Shown here piece by piece: positions 11,606-29,704 of a DNA stretch of 29,704 bases. Each line of letters begins with the position of its first letter. Positions within the stretch are counted from its first letter, which is position 1. The DNA comes from a virus. The DNA is taken from positions 1 through 29,704 of IMG/VR virus record IMGVR_UViG_3300038321_000078; one strand, 5' to 3'. The notes under the pieces are model-generated. The model worked only from the letters and a program-made list of their open reading frames with translations. It was not told the DNA's origin and did not search any database. A program made the translations under genes and the position numbers.

Positions 11606-11631
11606 TTTGACAATTAAATGTTGTATATTTG
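11601..11631 (+). promoter_or_regulatory. Candidate promoter (TTTG-19 nt-TATATTTG)
   Basis: TTTG 11601-11604 and TATATTTG 11624-11631, at the spacing expected for the Bacteroides -33/-7 consensus. It lies upstream of a terminator, so the function is uncertain. Confidence 0.35.
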
Positions 11632-11697
11632 TAAGGTAGAGAGTTTTGTATTAGTTTTTATAGTTTTTCATAGGTTTTTTTTGAATTTATTGATGCG

Positions 11698-11732
11698 AAG
11701 CGTGCTGACTGTGAAGTTGGCACGTTTTTTTT
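11698..11732 (+). terminator. Rho-independent terminator ending the tail operon
   Basis: Stem CGTGCT (11701-11706) / GGCACG (11719-11724), 12-nt loop, then T8 (11725-11732). Confidence 0.75.
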
Positions 11733-11821
11733 AGCACTTACCGTTAAAAAGGTAAAAAAATGTATACTATTTTAAGATATATATAATAAAAGTTAAATAA
11801 TCGCTAAAAATTTGGATAAAT

Positions 11822-11852
11822 TTTGGTATATCAAAAAAAGGTAGTATATTTG
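11822..11852 (+). promoter_or_regulatory. Candidate early promoter (TTTG-19 nt-TATATTTG)
   Basis: TTTG 11822-11825 and TATATTTG 11845-11852, about 46 nt upstream of the first early ORF (ATG 11899). Confidence 0.5.
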
Positions 11853-11898
11853 TATCATAAAGAAAGAGATAAACTAAACAATTAAAAAAAATACAACT

Positions 11899-12063
11899 AT
11901 GAAAACAACAAGAAATTTAACAGCACGTTACTTTGAAAGCTCGAAACTTTCAAGAATTTACGAAAATGGAAAATGGATCTACACAACCGACGAGGACTTG
12001 TCAAATTGCACCGAAAACGACATTAAGTATTTTTTAAGGAGTGGTGATTACTGGGCAAGATAA
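11899..12063 (+). CDS. Small early ORF, 54 aa (below track cutoff)
   Basis: My own translation: MKTTRNLTARYFESSKLSRIYENGKWIYTTDEDLSNCTENDIKYFLRSGDYWAR. It has the same aaaaacaactATGAAAACA start context as neighbouring early genes. Confidence 0.5.
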   Translation: MKTTRNLTARYFESSKLSRIYENGKWIYTTDEDLSNCTENDIKYFLRSGDYWAR

Positions 12064-12339
12064 ATAAACAACCTCCCGCCTGCGATGGCATCAAAGGCGG
12101 GAACAATTGAAAAAAGTTCTTTGAAATACTGATACAAAAACAGCTTAGCAAGTTGCAGATATGGTTGTAACGGTGGTGTTAAGTAATCGAAAAAGTCCTG
12201 CGTTCGTTGAAATGACGATAAAAGAGGACAAATCTCCCCGATAGTTCGGAAATGCTGAAAATTACATTCAGTTCGGGTCTCGAAGCCCGGCGGGGAACAA
12301 AAACAAAATGGAAACTATTTATAATTAAAATACATAACT
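12064..12339 (+). other. ORF-free, comparatively GC-rich structured region (candidate ncRNA, leader or cis element)
   Basis: Hairpin TCCCGCCT (12074-12081) / AGGCGGGA (12095-12102). A second module has closing stem TCCCCG (12235-12240) / CGGGGA (12291-12296) enclosing hairpins CTGAA/TTCAG (12255-12271) and CGGG/CCCG (12274-12289). Both modules are followed by ACAA. Confidence 0.3.
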
Positions 12340-22703: not shown

Positions 22704-22738
22704 AGCCGATTGCCAACGATGGTGGTCGGCTTTTTTTT
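22704..22738 (+). terminator. Rho-independent terminator ending the early/replication operon
   Basis: Stem AGCCGA (22704-22709) / TCGGCT (22726-22731), then a T-run through 22738. Confidence 0.75.
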
Positions 22739-22750
22739 GCTTTTTTGTGG

Positions 22751-22956
22751 TTTTTATCAGGAAATAAATTATTTTAGAAGAAACTAAAAGTAAAATAATA
22801 ATCAAAAATAATAGTAAAAAAGGCTATAGAAGTATATCAGGTATATTATTATTATATATTATTATAATATTATATATATACTATACTTATGACTATACTG
22901 TTCTTTTTTCCTATAGGCTTTTCAAAACGCATAATAATAATAATATAATAATAGTT
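22751..22956. repeat. AT-rich element B: inverted, diverged copy of element A (5786-5952), with internal dyad symmetry, a (TA)n core and (TAA)n arm
   Basis: Blocks shared with the reverse complement of A: tttttatcag 22751-22760, aaataatagt 22806-22815, tatatcagg 22833-22841, tattatatatatact 22868-22882, acgcataataataataatataataatagtt 22927-22956. Confidence 0.7.
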
Positions 22957-22999
22957 TAACAAAACTAAACAGAAGTTAAAAAAATGTTAACGTAAAGGA

Positions 23000-23035
23000 A
23001 ACCGAAAAAAAAACCGAAAAAACGTTGTATATTTG
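23000..23035 (+). promoter_or_regulatory. Candidate late/packaging-operon promoter: tandem AACCGAAAAAA x2 followed by the -7 box TATATTTG
   Basis: AACCGAAAAAA at 23000-23010 and 23012-23022; TATATTTG at 23028-23035, about 26 nt before ATG 23062. No -33 TTTG. The 12-mer GTTGTATATTTG is shared with 11620-11631. Confidence 0.4.
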
Positions 23036-23061
23036 ACGAAAATAATTCATGCAGAAAAACT

Positions 23062-23832
23062 ATGAAGCTGACAGACCTAAAACAAAATCCTAAAAATCCG
23101 AGAATCATAAAAGATGACAAATTTAAGAAGCTCGTAAAATCATTACAGGAATTTCCTGAAATGATGGAGAAGCGTCCGATGGTTTGTGTAACGGATTCGG
23201 TGGATGGCAAATTGTTTCCGTTGGGTGGTAATATGAGGTTAAAGGCTTTACAGGAATTGAAGTACAAAGATATTCCTGATAGTTGGGTAATGCTGGCTGA
23301 TGATTGGACGGAGGAGAAGAGGATAGAATTTGCAATTCGAGATAACGTAAGTTATGGCGATTGGGATTGGAAAGAGTTAGCGAATGATTGGGATGCTGAT
23401 ACGTTGGAAGATTGGGGATTAGATATGTCTGATTGGGAAGATGATAAAGACGAAAATAGCGAGGGAATAAAAAAGGCAACAGAAATTTTATCAGGATTAA
23501 AGTATGAGCCATTGTATTATGAACCGATAGAAAAGCCAAATATAAATTTATTTGATTGTATTAATTTCGATAAATACAATGCTAAAATAAAAGCGATTGA
23601 TGAATACGATTTAACTACAGAACAAAAGGAGGTATTAAAGTTTTTCGCATATCGTTTTATAAAAATAGATTTTGAAAATGTAGCAAATTACTATTCATTT
23701 AACGCCTCAGACGAAGAACAAAAAGCGATAGAAAGACTTCGTTTGGTTTTGACTGATACAGGACTGAATGGATTTGTTGAAGATGATTTATTGAAAATAA
23801 TGAAAGAAAGTATTGATGCAGGAAATGATTAA
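23062..23832 (+). CDS. ParB N-terminal (ParB/Srx-fold, ParB-like nuclease) domain protein with an acidic Trp-rich linker, 256 aa
   Basis: LKQNPKNPRII...LVKSLQEF...PLGGNMRLKAL fits ParBc motifs. Then DWDWKELANDWDADTLEDWGLDMSDWEDD. The C-terminal ~120 aa are unassigned. Confidence 0.65.
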   Translation: MKLTDLKQNPKNPRIIKDDKFKKLVKSLQEFPEMMEKRPMVCVTDSVDGKLFPLGGNMRLKALQELKYKDIPDSWVMLADDWTEEKRIEFAIRDNVSYGDWDWKELANDWDADTLEDWGLDMSDWEDDKDENSEGIKKATEILSGLKYEPLYYEPIEKPNINLFDCINFDKYNAKIKAIDEYDLTTEQKEVLKFFAYRFIKIDFENVANYYSFNASDEEQKAIERLRLVLTDTGLNGFVEDDLLKIMKESIDAGND

Positions 23833-24727
23833 CATATTTATTCCGTCATATCATCGACCTACTAATGTAAAAACAGCAAAGTATTTTGTTAGAATGGGTT
23901 ATGATCCAAAAAAAATTCACGTATTTGTAGACAGTGAAACAGATGATATATCTGAATATGAAATTGAAATGAATAAAATTGGTGTACAATTGCATGTTTT
24001 TGACATGGAAGAAGCACGAAAAAGATATGATTATGTTCACCGTGCGAGTGTATCAAGACGTTCAGCAGGACAGGCAAGAAATATGTTTCAAGATTTTGCA
24101 AAAGCAAACAATATAGATTTTTATATGGTTATGGACGATGATACAAATGGTATGCAAAACAGACCTTTTGGCTTGTATCTTGGACCTGCAAAAATTGATT
24201 TAATAAATACTGTTTTTTTGATGATAGAAAGTTTTATGCGTAAACATAAAATTGGATTATTCGGATTATCACAGACAGGAGATGTTTATAGTTACGGTGT
24301 TTCAAATAAAATATTCAGAAAAAAGGTAATGAACACAACATTCTATCTACTTCCTTATATTTATAGGGGAGAACGTGGTGTACAAGATGACGACACAAGT
24401 CTATTTACTGGAATAATGAATGAGGGTTTATTTACCGGAAGCATGCACAGCGGTTTAATTTTACAGCAAACAGCATCTGCTGTGCAAGCTGGAGGTTTAA
24501 CTGATTTATATAATGAGTGTAAGCTGCTAAATAAATCACTTGTTACGCCTATACAGTTTCCAAGTGCGATACATGCAGAAAAACAAACTATGAATGGGAA
24601 TAGATTACATCACAGAATTAAAAACAGATACTTATTTCCAAGAATTATAAAAAGCGATAAAAGGGATAATATCGCTTGGGATACATATGCCGAAGATTAC
24701 CCATTCACTAACGAGCCAAAACGCTGA
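23813..24727 (+). CDS. Putative GT-A-fold glycosyltransferase-like protein, 304 aa (300 aa if it starts at ATG 23825)
   Basis: N-terminal beta-strand INIFIPSYHRP and DxD-like FYMVMDDD are reminiscent of nucleotide-sugar GT-A enzymes. AT-richer than the flanking genes. The assignment rests on motifs only. Confidence 0.4.
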   Translation: MMQEMINIFIPSYHRPTNVKTAKYFVRMGYDPKKIHVFVDSETDDISEYEIEMNKIGVQLHVFDMEEARKRYDYVHRASVSRRSAGQARNMFQDFAKANNIDFYMVMDDDTNGMQNRPFGLYLGPAKIDLINTVFLMIESFMRKHKIGLFGLSQTGDVYSYGVSNKIFRKKVMNTTFYLLPYIYRGERGVQDDDTSLFTGIMNEGLFTGSMHSGLILQQTASAVQAGGLTDLYNECKLLNKSLVTPIQFPSAIHAEKQTMNGNRLHHRIKNRYLFPRIIKSDKRDNIAWDTYAEDYPFTNEPKR

Positions 24728-24749: not shown

Positions 24750-26327
24750 ATGGCAAATCCAGGAAATATAATACCTCCGAAGAAAGGCGAAGTTCGTAAT
24801 CCGAAAGGTAGGGGTAATTCTCTCAACCGAAAAACGTTGATGCGTAAATGGTTGACGTTGACGGAGGAGGGGAAAAATCCGATAACAAAGGAAACGGAAC
24901 AGTTATCGCAGGCAGACCTTGTCATGTTGTCAATGATAAACAAAGCGAGAAAGGGAGATGTTTCAGCAGGCAAATTATTGATTGAACACGGCACTGATGA
25001 AGAGCGAGAGCAGACAAAAGACACCAACATTCAGACAGCACCAACGTTGGCAAACTATGTAAATTCAGTTGCTGACGATTGGTTGCAACAGCGTACGTTT
25101 ATTGAAACCTATAAGATATTAGAGCAGATACACGATTTCTGTTTTGACACCGAAAATAAAATACTTTTGTTGTCGATGCCACAAGGGAGCGGAAAATCGT
25201 ACATTGCGAACAAGGTAACGGAATGGTTATTAGGTTGTTGGCAGTTGGTGGCGAGAACACAATCAAATTCTATAATGCGGGTTTGCAACACCGATTCAAA
25301 TGTTACAAAGTTTCAGGCGGCAATATCAAACGAGATAATGGGAGAGGCGTGGTCAGCGGTATTTGGTAATCACAAGCTGTCAAATAACAACAAGAATGGA
25401 ATGAGGTTTGACGGCAGTTGGAATGACAATGCCTTTTTCACTTCAGCAAAAAGTTCTGTTATGTCCAGAAGGGCAGATTTTTTAATATTCGATGACCTAT
25501 ACGCCAGTATGGGCGAAGCGCTGAGCCATACGATGACAGCCGATTATATCATGAAGTTCCAAACGATGTGGCGGGGGAGGTTGAAGGGGAGTGAGATAGG
25601 AAAGATAATCATGGTCGGCACGAGGTATGCAAAGAATGACTTCTATCAACAGGTCGTTAATATGTACCCTGATAGTTCTGTTGTGATAACAGTTCCGGCA
25701 ATTGATGACAATGGTAATAGTTTCTGCGAAGAAACGCACCCAATAGATGAATTACTGCATGACAGGGAAACGATGAACATTGACTTGTTCAATGCTATCT
25801 ATCAACAGCAACCAACGGCGGAAGGATTTATCAATCCGTTTGCTGACTGGACACCAACGACAGCACCGGTCCATGAGGGTCAGTTTGATTATGTTTGCAC
25901 GGTAGCAGATCCGAGCTTCGGCGTTGGAGGGGATTATTTCATGGTGGGGAAATTTGGTTACAACCGCAACGGTCAGACGGCATTAATAGACTTATTATGT
26001 GAGCGGGTTTGTTCTGATGAGATGTACATTGATTTCATTGAGCGAGCAGGTTGCAAGCGTAATTTTGTCGAGGGCAATGGCGTTGGAGGGATGCTGATAA
26101 AAAGGGTTATCAATCGGACGAAGCAGCCGATATTGCCGTTCACTTCAATTGGCAATAAGATTGAGAGAATTTACATGAATGCGAATGATATCATGCGGAT
26201 GACGTTTAATGAGAAATTAGAAAACATTCCGTTCGAGCAGATGTTTAATTTCGGGAGTGCCGATCATGATGATTTCCCGGATATGATAAGTCACTTCTTT
26301 AACAATGTCAAAGTATATGGATACTGA
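24750..26327 (+). CDS. terL: Terminase large subunit with a small-terminase-like N-terminal extension, 525 aa
   Basis: Walker A MPQGSGKS, Walker B FLIFDDL, GTRY, and nuclease acidic motifs VADPSFGVGGD, VEGNGVGG and ADHDDFPD. The first ~95 aa (NPGNIIPPKKGEVRNPKGRGN ... KARKGDVSAGKLLIEHG) resemble small-terminase-type N-termini. Confidence 0.85.
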   Translation: MANPGNIIPPKKGEVRNPKGRGNSLNRKTLMRKWLTLTEEGKNPITKETEQLSQADLVMLSMINKARKGDVSAGKLLIEHGTDEEREQTKDTNIQTAPTLANYVNSVADDWLQQRTFIETYKILEQIHDFCFDTENKILLLSMPQGSGKSYIANKVTEWLLGCWQLVARTQSNSIMRVCNTDSNVTKFQAAISNEIMGEAWSAVFGNHKLSNNNKNGMRFDGSWNDNAFFTSAKSSVMSRRADFLIFDDLYASMGEALSHTMTADYIMKFQTMWRGRLKGSEIGKIIMVGTRYAKNDFYQQVVNMYPDSSVVITVPAIDDNGNSFCEETHPIDELLHDRETMNIDLFNAIYQQQPTAEGFINPFADWTPTTAPVHEGQFDYVCTVADPSFGVGGDYFMVGKFGYNRNGQTALIDLLCERVCSDEMYIDFIERAGCKRNFVEGNGVGGMLIKRVINRTKQPILPFTSIGNKIERIYMNANDIMRMTFNEKLENIPFEQMFNFGSADHDDFPDMISHFFNNVKVYGY

Positions 26328-29517: not shown

Positions 29518-29704
29518 CAGCGAATGATTATATTTTGGCTGGTTACGAAATTTCAAAACAAGTTTCAGAAGAAATTATTACGAGGGCAGAAAACGACGTA
29601 ATGAACGCATATGTTATTCCGATATTGGGAGCAGAAGCAACCTTTGAGGATAATAAGTGTGACGTTATGGGTTTGGCTTATTGTTTAATGCTTCGGAGAA
29701 ATAT
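29514..29704 (+). CDS. 5' part of the junction-spanning CDS (continues at base 78 of the window; same gene as 1..345)
   Basis: ATG 29514. The frame stays open to the window end and is in phase with 1..345 through the 77-bp overlap. Confidence 0.6.
   Translation, partial: MTANDYILAGYEISKQVSEEIITRAENDVMNAYVIPILGAEATFEDNKCDVMGLAYCLMLRRN
29628..29704. repeat. Second copy of the 77-bp terminal overlap (identical to 1-77)
   Basis: Direct reading, as for 1-77. Confidence 0.95.

Follow-up and report, generated by a model that had tools for sequence, protein, structure and literature searches.

What is the role of a ParB-like gene and a glycosyltransferase (GT) gene that lie immediately upstream of the large terminase gene in the viral record IMGVR_UViG_3300038321_000078 (IMG/VR)? 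The window analyzed here is the whole 29,704-nt stretch of that record, and the gene pair occupies positions 23062 to 24727. With moderate confidence, we interpret the pair as a two-gene DNA-glycosylation cassette, in which a GT that is delivered or activated by its partner protein would modify DNA after replication. This interpretation is based on the membership of the GT in a family that acts on DNA, the precedent of ParB-like activators of other phage enzymes, the replisome context of a version of the system that lacks the ParB domain, and the broad spread of hosts.

The GT gene and its conserved motifs are located as follows.

23825-24727, + strand: TAGT-family GT-A glycosyltransferase, 300 amino acids (aa), start ATG 23825; the maximal open reading frame (ORF) runs from TTG 23813
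23855-23857, + strand: GT motif R11
24134-24142, + strand: GT motif DDD104-106
24383-24400, + strand: GT motif QDDDTS187-192
24491-24511, + strand: GT motif GGLTDLY
24608-24613, + strand: GT motif HH262-263

The likely start codon is ATG 23825, which replaces the TTG 23813 start given in the initial annotation; with this start the product has 300 aa, the length of database entry P0001, and the gene overlaps the stop of the upstream gene, ORF1, by 8 nt (ATGATTAA). The product of the GT gene (ORF2) matches the Pfam family TAGT (PF20691) over residues 7-181 (6.8e-11, 42.9 bits, gathering cut-off 27.5) and PHROG 842 (2e-24). PF20691 is also pre-annotated on nearly all close homologs of the GT, and members of the distant clade score 98-171 bits. 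R11, DDD104-106, D190, GG223-224, and HH262-263 are invariant across six distant phage lineages, and the pattern R...DDD...[D/E]D plus a C-terminal HH is invariant from Bacteroidota-type phages to a haloarchaeal virus. No sequence match of the GT to solved structures was found. The AlphaFold2 (AF2) model of ORF2 has a GT-A fold, with residues 1-180 modeled confidently; its top Foldseek matches in the PDB are all GT-A enzymes (E 1.6e-6, probability 1.0), and its top matches in a viral Foldseek search are TAGT-domain proteins (E 2.4e-12, template modeling (TM) score ~0.6). The initial annotation had proposed a GT-A-style enzyme from the peptides IFIPSYHRP and VMDDD, both of which are present in ORF2; the Pfam score above the gathering threshold, the GT-A model, and the placement among glycosyltransferases by Foldseek all bear this out. 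The identification of ORF2 as a GT-A glycosyltransferase, in a family whose characterized viral and protist members glycosylate DNA, is therefore supported.

The base composition of the GT gene had been taken as a sign of module exchange. The GC content of the gene is below that of terL (0.329 vs. 0.426), but the gene is no compositional outlier in the genome (z = -0.78, tenth lowest of 46 genes), and this line of evidence was discarded; mobility of the module is instead supported by the variety of terL types that follow it (see below). The two most AT-rich genes of the genome (16850-17317 and 19283-19489; GC 0.23 and 0.27, GC at third codon positions 0.14-0.16) have no family match, and their composition is far more extreme than that of the GT gene.

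The gene upstream of the GT encodes a protein of three parts.

23062-23832, + strand: ORF1, ParB-like partner, 256 aa
23062-23352, + strand: ParB/Srx-fold nucleotide-binding domain, residues 1-97, with NPKNPR (9-14), S27, GGNMR (55-59), and DN (94-95)
23353-23526, + strand: acidic Trp-rich linker, residues 98-155; two short helices, then predicted disorder up to a conserved YEP motif
23527-23832, + strand: helical C-terminal domain (CTD), residues 156-256, and stop codon; no Pfam family; the GT-partner domain

The ParB/Srx fold of the ORF1 N-terminus is confirmed by several lines of evidence. ORF1 matches ParB-like PHROG families at 1e-24 to 1e-9; alone it falls below the Pfam ParB_N cut-off (13.4 vs. 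26.3 bits), and PF02195 is pre-annotated on most of its close homologs. A partner-family profile built from six lineages matches solved Noc/ParB/Spo0J chains over residues 2-97 (8e-11 to 1e-6). The top Foldseek matches of the ORF1 AF2 model are ParBs bound to cytidine di- or triphosphate (CDP/CTP), the best being MxParB-CDP (root mean square deviation 2.8 A over 101 columns); the alignment is limited to the first ~100 residues, all within the nucleotide-binding domain. Across 40 members of the clade, N12-P13-R14 (Box I NPR), S27, G55-G56-N57-M58-R59 (Box II GxxR), and D94-N95 (Box III D/E-N) are invariant; in distant partner clades only N12, S27, G56, D94, and N95 are invariant, and both arginines are lost in some. 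The model comprises a confident nucleotide-binding domain (1-95), two short helices (103-117), a disordered stretch (~120-155), and a confident helical CTD (160-253), and linker residues 99-135 include 11 D, 5 E, and 5 W. There is no helix-turn-helix (HTH) or parS-binding domain in the model between the nucleotide-binding domain and the CTD, and no ParA-like ATPase among the window ORFs scanned with Pfam or PHROGs. The initial annotation had divided ORF1 into a ParB/Srx domain, an acidic Trp-rich linker, and a C-terminal domain, a division upheld by the PHROG, profile-structure, homolog PF02195, and Foldseek evidence. It had also stated that ParB-like modules in many phages are fused or adjacent to DNA methyltransferases; the ORF1 N-terminal domain matches the N-terminus of PHROG 498 “DNA methyltransferase” at 1e-18, and orphan phage ParB folds fused to methyltransferases are known (Kaljevic et al. 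2025, PMC12704722). The ParB of Serratia phage eta was considered and set aside, as its context is unrelated.

The association of the two genes is conserved far beyond the window. By tblastn, the GT was found in viruses of Porphyromonas, E. coli/Salmonella, Lactobacillus, Nocardia, Vibrio, and Haloarcula, with a ParB-like gene directly before it and terminase genes after it in all of these lineages except the Vibrio phages; the GT family as a whole comprises 735 representatives at 50% clustering. Within the clade of the window (sampled as 70 IMG/VR loci plus the phages found by tblastn), the partner is immediately upstream of the GT in 65 of 65 loci with room for it, the gap ranging from -69 to +5 nt. 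This holds for 56 of 59 unique GTs of the E. coli-type clade, where the exceptions involve a fusion of GT and methyltransferase or an upstream gene of unknown type encoding 310 aa. Across both clades, partner and GT are linked in 121 of 124 loci with room, in overlapping or abutting frames, and the partner and GT distance matrices are strongly correlated (Mantel r = 0.908, p = 0.001, n = 121). The near-constant linkage, the overlapping frames, and the correlated divergence (r = 0.91) support the ParB-like gene as a dedicated partner of the GT and not a partition protein. The cassette is nearly always found ahead of terS/terL, and the genes after it fall into several terS-like clusters and no fewer than three unrelated terL clusters, so that mobility of the cassette as a module is supported. 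In phage c5 the pair corresponds to ORF1 and ORF2, directly after the cos site. In E. coli it corresponds to ynaK and a gene annotated as “GREB1-related protein,” beside trkG (locus L002, 2213-3929); of 5,426 complete E. coli genomes, 889 (16%) contain no less than 80% of the pair and 1,580 some part of it, and in K-12 strains all that is left is the first ~254 nt of the partner gene. In its intact form, the Rac-prophage gene ynaK of K-12 is the ParB-like partner of a TAGT glycosyltransferase. We found no paper in the literature that reports the obligate CTD/ParB-TAGT pairing or ascribes a function to it, and the pairing appears to be undescribed.

Some TAGT proteins are fused to further domains: a class-I S-adenosylmethionine (SAM)-methyltransferase-like domain (P0297, P0335, and L229 8001-9719), a P-loop-like domain (P0344), or a second TAGT (P0337). 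The methyltransferase-like domain can be at either end of the TAGT and is of the Methyltransf_23/12 type, the same type that is reported fused to phage ParB folds; the P-loop-like N-terminal motif was judged by eye and the domain has no Pfam match. Fusions of ParB to GT were sought as “Rosetta stone” evidence for the pairing, and this was rejected: the double-length homologs combine the GT with a methyltransferase-like domain, a P-loop domain, or a second GT, and not with ParB.

The part of ORF1 that defines the pairing is the CTD. The initial annotation had left this domain unassigned, which is correct insofar as it has no Pfam family; what was overlooked is that it is the universal partner of the GT and that elsewhere it occurs without a ParB domain. 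A CTD-only profile retrieved 1,731 proteins, the best of which are stand-alone proteins of 110-160 aa without a ParB domain; these share P-x-Y-E/L-P, A47, R49, YY61-62, E69, Q71, E75, LV79-80, and D83. Since stand-alone CTDs adjoin TAGT genes in other phages, the core of the system is the CTD-TAGT pair, and the ParB nucleotide-binding domain is an accessory that can be fused, split, or absent. One locus (L247, 4585-7158) has a separate 139-aa ParB_N gene, followed by genes for the CTD, the TAGT, a radical-SAM enzyme, and then the terminase; another (L249) has genes for an N6/N4 methyltransferase, an acetyltransferase, the CTD, and the TAGT. In phages of ~60-100 kb, a stand-alone CTD gene is followed by up to three tandem TAGT genes (L246 5001-7982; also L245, L248, and L250). 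In these four of the five larger phages sampled, a DNA polymerase A gene precedes the CTD gene and the one to three TAGT genes, and a gene for the beta sliding clamp is nearby; RecA is encoded further downstream in three of the four. An unannotated gene of 378-402 aa lies between DNA polymerase A and the CTD gene in L245 and L246, and an extra TAGT gene is present at this position in L248. The 378-402-aa proteins were considered as a hidden acceptor-making enzyme and rejected, as they are mutually unrelated, one is weakly beta-clamp-like, and neither has a notable PDB or Pfam match. In L245, L248, and L250, the GT and clamp genes are separated by a gene of cytidylyltransferase-like or NAD-dependent sugar-epimerase type. 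The arrangement in these tandem-TAGT, polymerase-A phages suggests an oligosaccharide-building, replisome-linked version of the system.

The setting of the cassette in the window is given by the following features.

22704-22731, + strand: intrinsic-terminator-like hairpin (12-bp stem and T-run) that closes the upstream early/middle operon after a VRR-NUC-like gene
22740-23061, + strand: AT-rich spacer, ~320 nt, ~26% GC, with (TAT/ATA)n tracts and AACCGAAAAA repeats
24750-26327, + strand: large terminase (terL), identified by Pfam, PHROG, and homology to a separate protein of relatives; first ~95 residues DUF5681-like

After the spacer, the partner, GT, and terL genes follow in this order, almost without gaps. 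The cassette is made up of the first genes of the late/packaging operon, as indicated by the terminator hairpin and spacer upstream and the near-gapless partner-GT-terL order downstream. The spacer is presumed to be the promoter region of this operon; its repeats are low-complexity only, and no convincing parS-like site is present upstream of the partner gene. The first ~95 residues of terL have 44-51% identity to a separate 110-116-aa protein encoded between the GT and terL genes, in the terS position, in relatives (L017, L020, L021, L033, L054, L059, L060, and L080). The in-frame terS-like/terL fusion in the window could be real or could be due to a sequencing or assembly indel. As this N-terminal region has a separate homolog in the terS position, a terS-like module exists independently of the ParB-like protein. 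The possibility that the ParB-like protein is itself the small terminase was rejected on this basis, and because most loci have a small ORF between the GT and terL genes.

The first and last 77 nt of the window form an exact direct terminal repeat (1-77 = 29628-29704), and the window is thus a complete phage genome, circular or circularly permuted, of 29,627 bp. All of its predicted genes are on the + strand. Recognizable structural genes encode a collagen-like fiber, tape-measure protein, portal, and terminase; other recognizable genes encode a RecE-like exonuclease, primase-like proteins, an SNF2 helicase, and a VRR-NUC nuclease. The collagen-like gene (1083-2534) encodes a 483-aa protein with collagen-like Gly-X-Y repeats and many tail-fiber PHROG matches; it is within the structural module, yet upstream of the tape-measure gene. 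The Pfam scan (E <= 0.01 or looser) covered window ORFs of at least 127 aa and the 94-aa VRR-NUC-like ORF, and the PHROG scan covered 15 ORFs, including all of at least 287 aa except the portal and major-capsid genes; the remaining unannotated ORFs encode tail-module proteins or are shorter than ~170 aa. No integrase, repressor, holin, or endolysin was recognized among the scanned ORFs, all but one of which have at least 127 aa, and PADLOC gave no meaningful defense-system match. Where the tail module gives way to the first early genes, ~730 nt (11606-12339) are poor in genes, with no ORF of at least 60 aa on either strand; a regulatory or origin function is probable for this stretch.

We infer a DNA acceptor, tethering or activation of the GT by the partner, and a protective role for the modification. 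The TAGT-family GT-A is taken to be metal-dependent and probably inverting. The partner CTD would bind or activate the GT, and the ParB-type domain, on its flexible acidic linker, may provide a nucleoside triphosphate (NTP)-gated, dimeric DNA-clamping or DNA-opening function, in a role akin to that of the ParB activators that some phage thymine dioxygenases need when they act on double-stranded DNA. The complex would place a sugar from a host nucleotide-sugar on replicated phage DNA, just before or during packaging, where it would most plausibly blunt the action of host nucleases; an anti-restriction purpose would be plausible. The replisome context of the CTD-TAGT pair in the larger phages fits a DNA substrate, and the spread of the cassette across bacterial phyla and archaea with unrelated envelopes makes host-specific surface polymers a less likely acceptor than something universal such as DNA. 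The fusions of the GT to a methyltransferase-like, P-loop-like, or second GT domain were also counted in favor of DNA.

Several observations weigh against DNA as the acceptor. The most important is the lack of an identifiable acceptor-making enzyme. Phage DNA glycosylation, as currently understood, decorates 5-hydroxymethylcytosine (5hmC) or 5-hydroxymethyluracil (5hmU), made before replication by thymidylate synthase (ThyS)-type enzymes or after replication by TET/JBP-type dioxygenases. No TET/JBP dioxygenase, thymidylate-synthase-type hydroxymethylase, or DNA methyltransferase was found in the scanned ORFs of the 29.6-kb genome, with the limit that divergent dioxygenases can escape PF12851; the remark in the initial annotation that no hydroxymethylase or TET/JBP gene is present thus holds across the scanned ORFs, and it holds genome-wide because the window is a complete circular genome. 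TET_JBP and thymidylate synthase are likewise absent from eight Pfam-annotated related neighborhoods, and the annotation of phage c5 (31.8 kb) includes no acceptor-making enzyme. When 88 upstream-neighbor cluster representatives were pooled and scanned with Pfam, no recurrent acceptor-making partner was seen among the 25 most frequent of 52 families. We know of no GT-A that glycosylates an unmodified DNA base. The third active-site motif of the GT is DDT/EDV, compared with a reported EDY/F (this comparison being with the published pattern only); we speculate that T or V in place of the aromatic residue could go with a different acceptor. Confidence in the GT model is low over its C-terminal 120 residues. 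Finally, GREB1, an animal member of TAGT, is reported to be a protein O-GlcNAc transferase. In a bolder form of the proposal, the CTD-TAGT pair, with the ParB domain, would add sugar to phage DNA without a hydroxymethyl-pyrimidine precursor, on a canonical base or another universal feature of DNA. We regard this form as rather doubtful.

The activity of GREB1 leads to the alternative that the target of O-glycosylation by the GT is a phage protein, for example the collagen-like fiber or a capsid, tail, or packaging protein, for which the partner would be an adaptor. The best PDB fold matches of the GT are the GT domain of LH3, which glycosylates collagen, and COLGALT1, a fiber with collagen repeats is encoded in the window, and the cassette is co-transcribed with structural genes; some mycobacteriophages glycosylate capsid and tail proteins by means of GT plus methyltransferase genes. 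However, these PDB matches are generic for GT-A enzymes (TM 0.3-0.4, 9-17% identity) and the matches to viral TAGT proteins are much stronger, the nearest structures of the ParB-type fold of the partner are DNA clamps, and in other phages the CTD-GT core has genes for DNA polymerase and the sliding clamp nearby. A lysyl hydroxylase, which would supply hydroxylysine, is absent. Glycosylation of the collagen-like fiber, raised in the initial annotation, is weakened in particular by the presence of the cassette in many genomes and contexts unrelated to such fibers, including phage c5, which has no annotated collagen-like protein. We consider a protein acceptor unlikely.

Two further explanations were considered. 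If the ParB-like protein took part in the initiation of packaging (by pac/cos recognition or as a nuclease, like terminase-adjacent HNH), the GT would be a passenger moron; in nearly every siphovirus-type locus terS/terL come directly after the pair, which follows cos in phage c5, and several records label the partner “ParB-like partition nuclease.” A passenger GT is difficult to reconcile with near-obligate pairing, overlapping frames, correlated divergence, and invariant catalytic residues, and a packaging role with the CTD that travels with TAGT genes in replication modules, far from the terminase, or with the terS-like gene or domain that the window and its relatives have in addition to the partner; this is the least probable of the explanations considered here, and we give it very little credence. 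The other explanation has an acceptor that is neither DNA nor protein: a nucleotide or signaling molecule (for counter-defense) or a host envelope polymer (for receptor masking, cf. prophage TarP and Gtr), with the ParB/Srx domain serving, like SerK, SbnI, or sulfiredoxin, as a kinase or NTP-binding enzyme. Kinases of small molecules and of proteins do belong to the ParB/Srx fold and are found further down the Foldseek ranking; for phage GT-As, the top PDB match has been reported to be TarP, a GT that acts on wall teichoic acid and is encoded by a prophage; temperate prophages make up many of the carriers; and a cytidylyltransferase-like or epimerase gene is beside the GT in some loci. Nevertheless, no hydrophobic segment or signal peptide is obvious by eye in either protein, the cassette is carried by viruses of diderms, monoderms, actinobacteria, and haloarchaea, with completely different envelopes, and it is in a late operon or replisome module and not in an early or lysogenic position. 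The nearest structures of the partner are CTP-clamp ParBs and not kinases, and we consider such an acceptor very unlikely. DNA glycosylation by a partner-assisted GT remains the interpretation that we prefer, with a small share of the probability assigned to none of the explanations discussed.

These findings isolate a large, coherent subset of orphan phage GTs, defined by a TAGT enzyme and a dedicated partner domain, at the packaging operon or in a replisome module; some of the carrier genomes are small enough to show the absence of an acceptor pathway. If the pair does act on DNA, the ParB-activator principle described in 2026 for thymine dioxygenases would extend to glycosyltransferases, and a new acceptor chemistry would be indicated. 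If no precursor is needed, the product would be a previously unknown DNA modification, with its cassette in about one-sixth of complete E. coli genomes and in bacterial and archaeal viruses. The system is easily testable, being present in Rac-like prophages of hundreds of E. coli strains, and cultured carriers include c5, phi jlb1, NTR1, HHTV-2, and Porphyromonas phages. Modified phage DNA is relevant to phage therapy, sequencing artifacts, and enzymatic DNA-labeling tools.

Compared with chromosomal and plasmid ParB proteins (Spo0J, Noc, KorB), which are the best sequence and structure matches of ORF1, the N-terminal CTP-binding fold and its motifs are the same, whereas ORF1 lacks the HTH/parS-binding domain, has a different CTD, is encoded in a late operon, and has no ParA detected in the scanned ORFs. 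In the phage and prophage ParB-methyltransferase fusions (Kaljevic; PHROG 498), an orphan ParB-CTPase fold without ParA/parS is likewise tied to a DNA-modifying activity; in the window, the partner activity is a separate, translationally coupled GT and not a fused methyltransferase, and in rare relatives it is the GT itself, and not ParB, that is fused to a Methyltransf_23/12-like domain.

The TAGT family (PF20691) includes kinetoplastid JGT, the T2/T6 beta-glucosyl-HMC-alpha-glucosyltransferase, and phage C5-MT/5mYOX GT-As (Burke 2021, PMC8256090; Pyle 2023, bioRxiv 10.1101/2023.12.21.572611), and 5hmC glycosyltransferases tied to phage TET-type dioxygenases are also within it. The GT of the window shares with these DNA enzymes the PF20691 match, the GT-A fold, a phage origin, frequent ParB and terminase neighbors, and the pattern R...DDD...[D/E]D, the active site of phage DNA GT-As and JGT being reported as R...DDD...EDY/F; its third motif has T/V where theirs has Y/F. 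The known enzymes use 5hmU, 5hmC, or glucosyl-5hmC supplied by a dioxygenase or hydroxymethylase, neither of which was found here or in the eight related neighborhoods, and an obligate CTD-bearing partner has not been described for them. Approximately 65% of phage GT contigs are without 5mYOX or ThyS, and such GTs were judged less likely to modify DNA (Pyle 2023, bioRxiv 10.1101/2023.12.21.572611).

A parallel to the partner is provided by the ParB-like activator that one subclass of phage thymine dioxygenases requires, specifically on double-stranded DNA; GT, ParB, and terminase genes are the commonest neighbors of phage 5mYOX genes (O’Toole et al. 2026, PMC13229309). The enzyme gene alongside is a TAGT GT in the window and a 5mYOX dioxygenase, of which none was found here, in that system, and GTs in that study went with the ParB-independent dioxygenase subclass, unlike the pairing described here (PMC13229309). 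The CTD of the present system can, judging by context, also function without any ParB domain. By description, however, the two proteins share a layout of nucleotide-binding domain, short helices, disordered linker of ~50 aa, and CTD, without an HTH, and both are encoded beside a gene for a DNA-modifying-type enzyme, often with a terminase nearby. Their putative NTP-contact patterns are also alike: the activator residues mutated by O’Toole et al., N14, R16, S29, and R56, correspond by spacing to N12, R14, S27, and R59 of ORF1.

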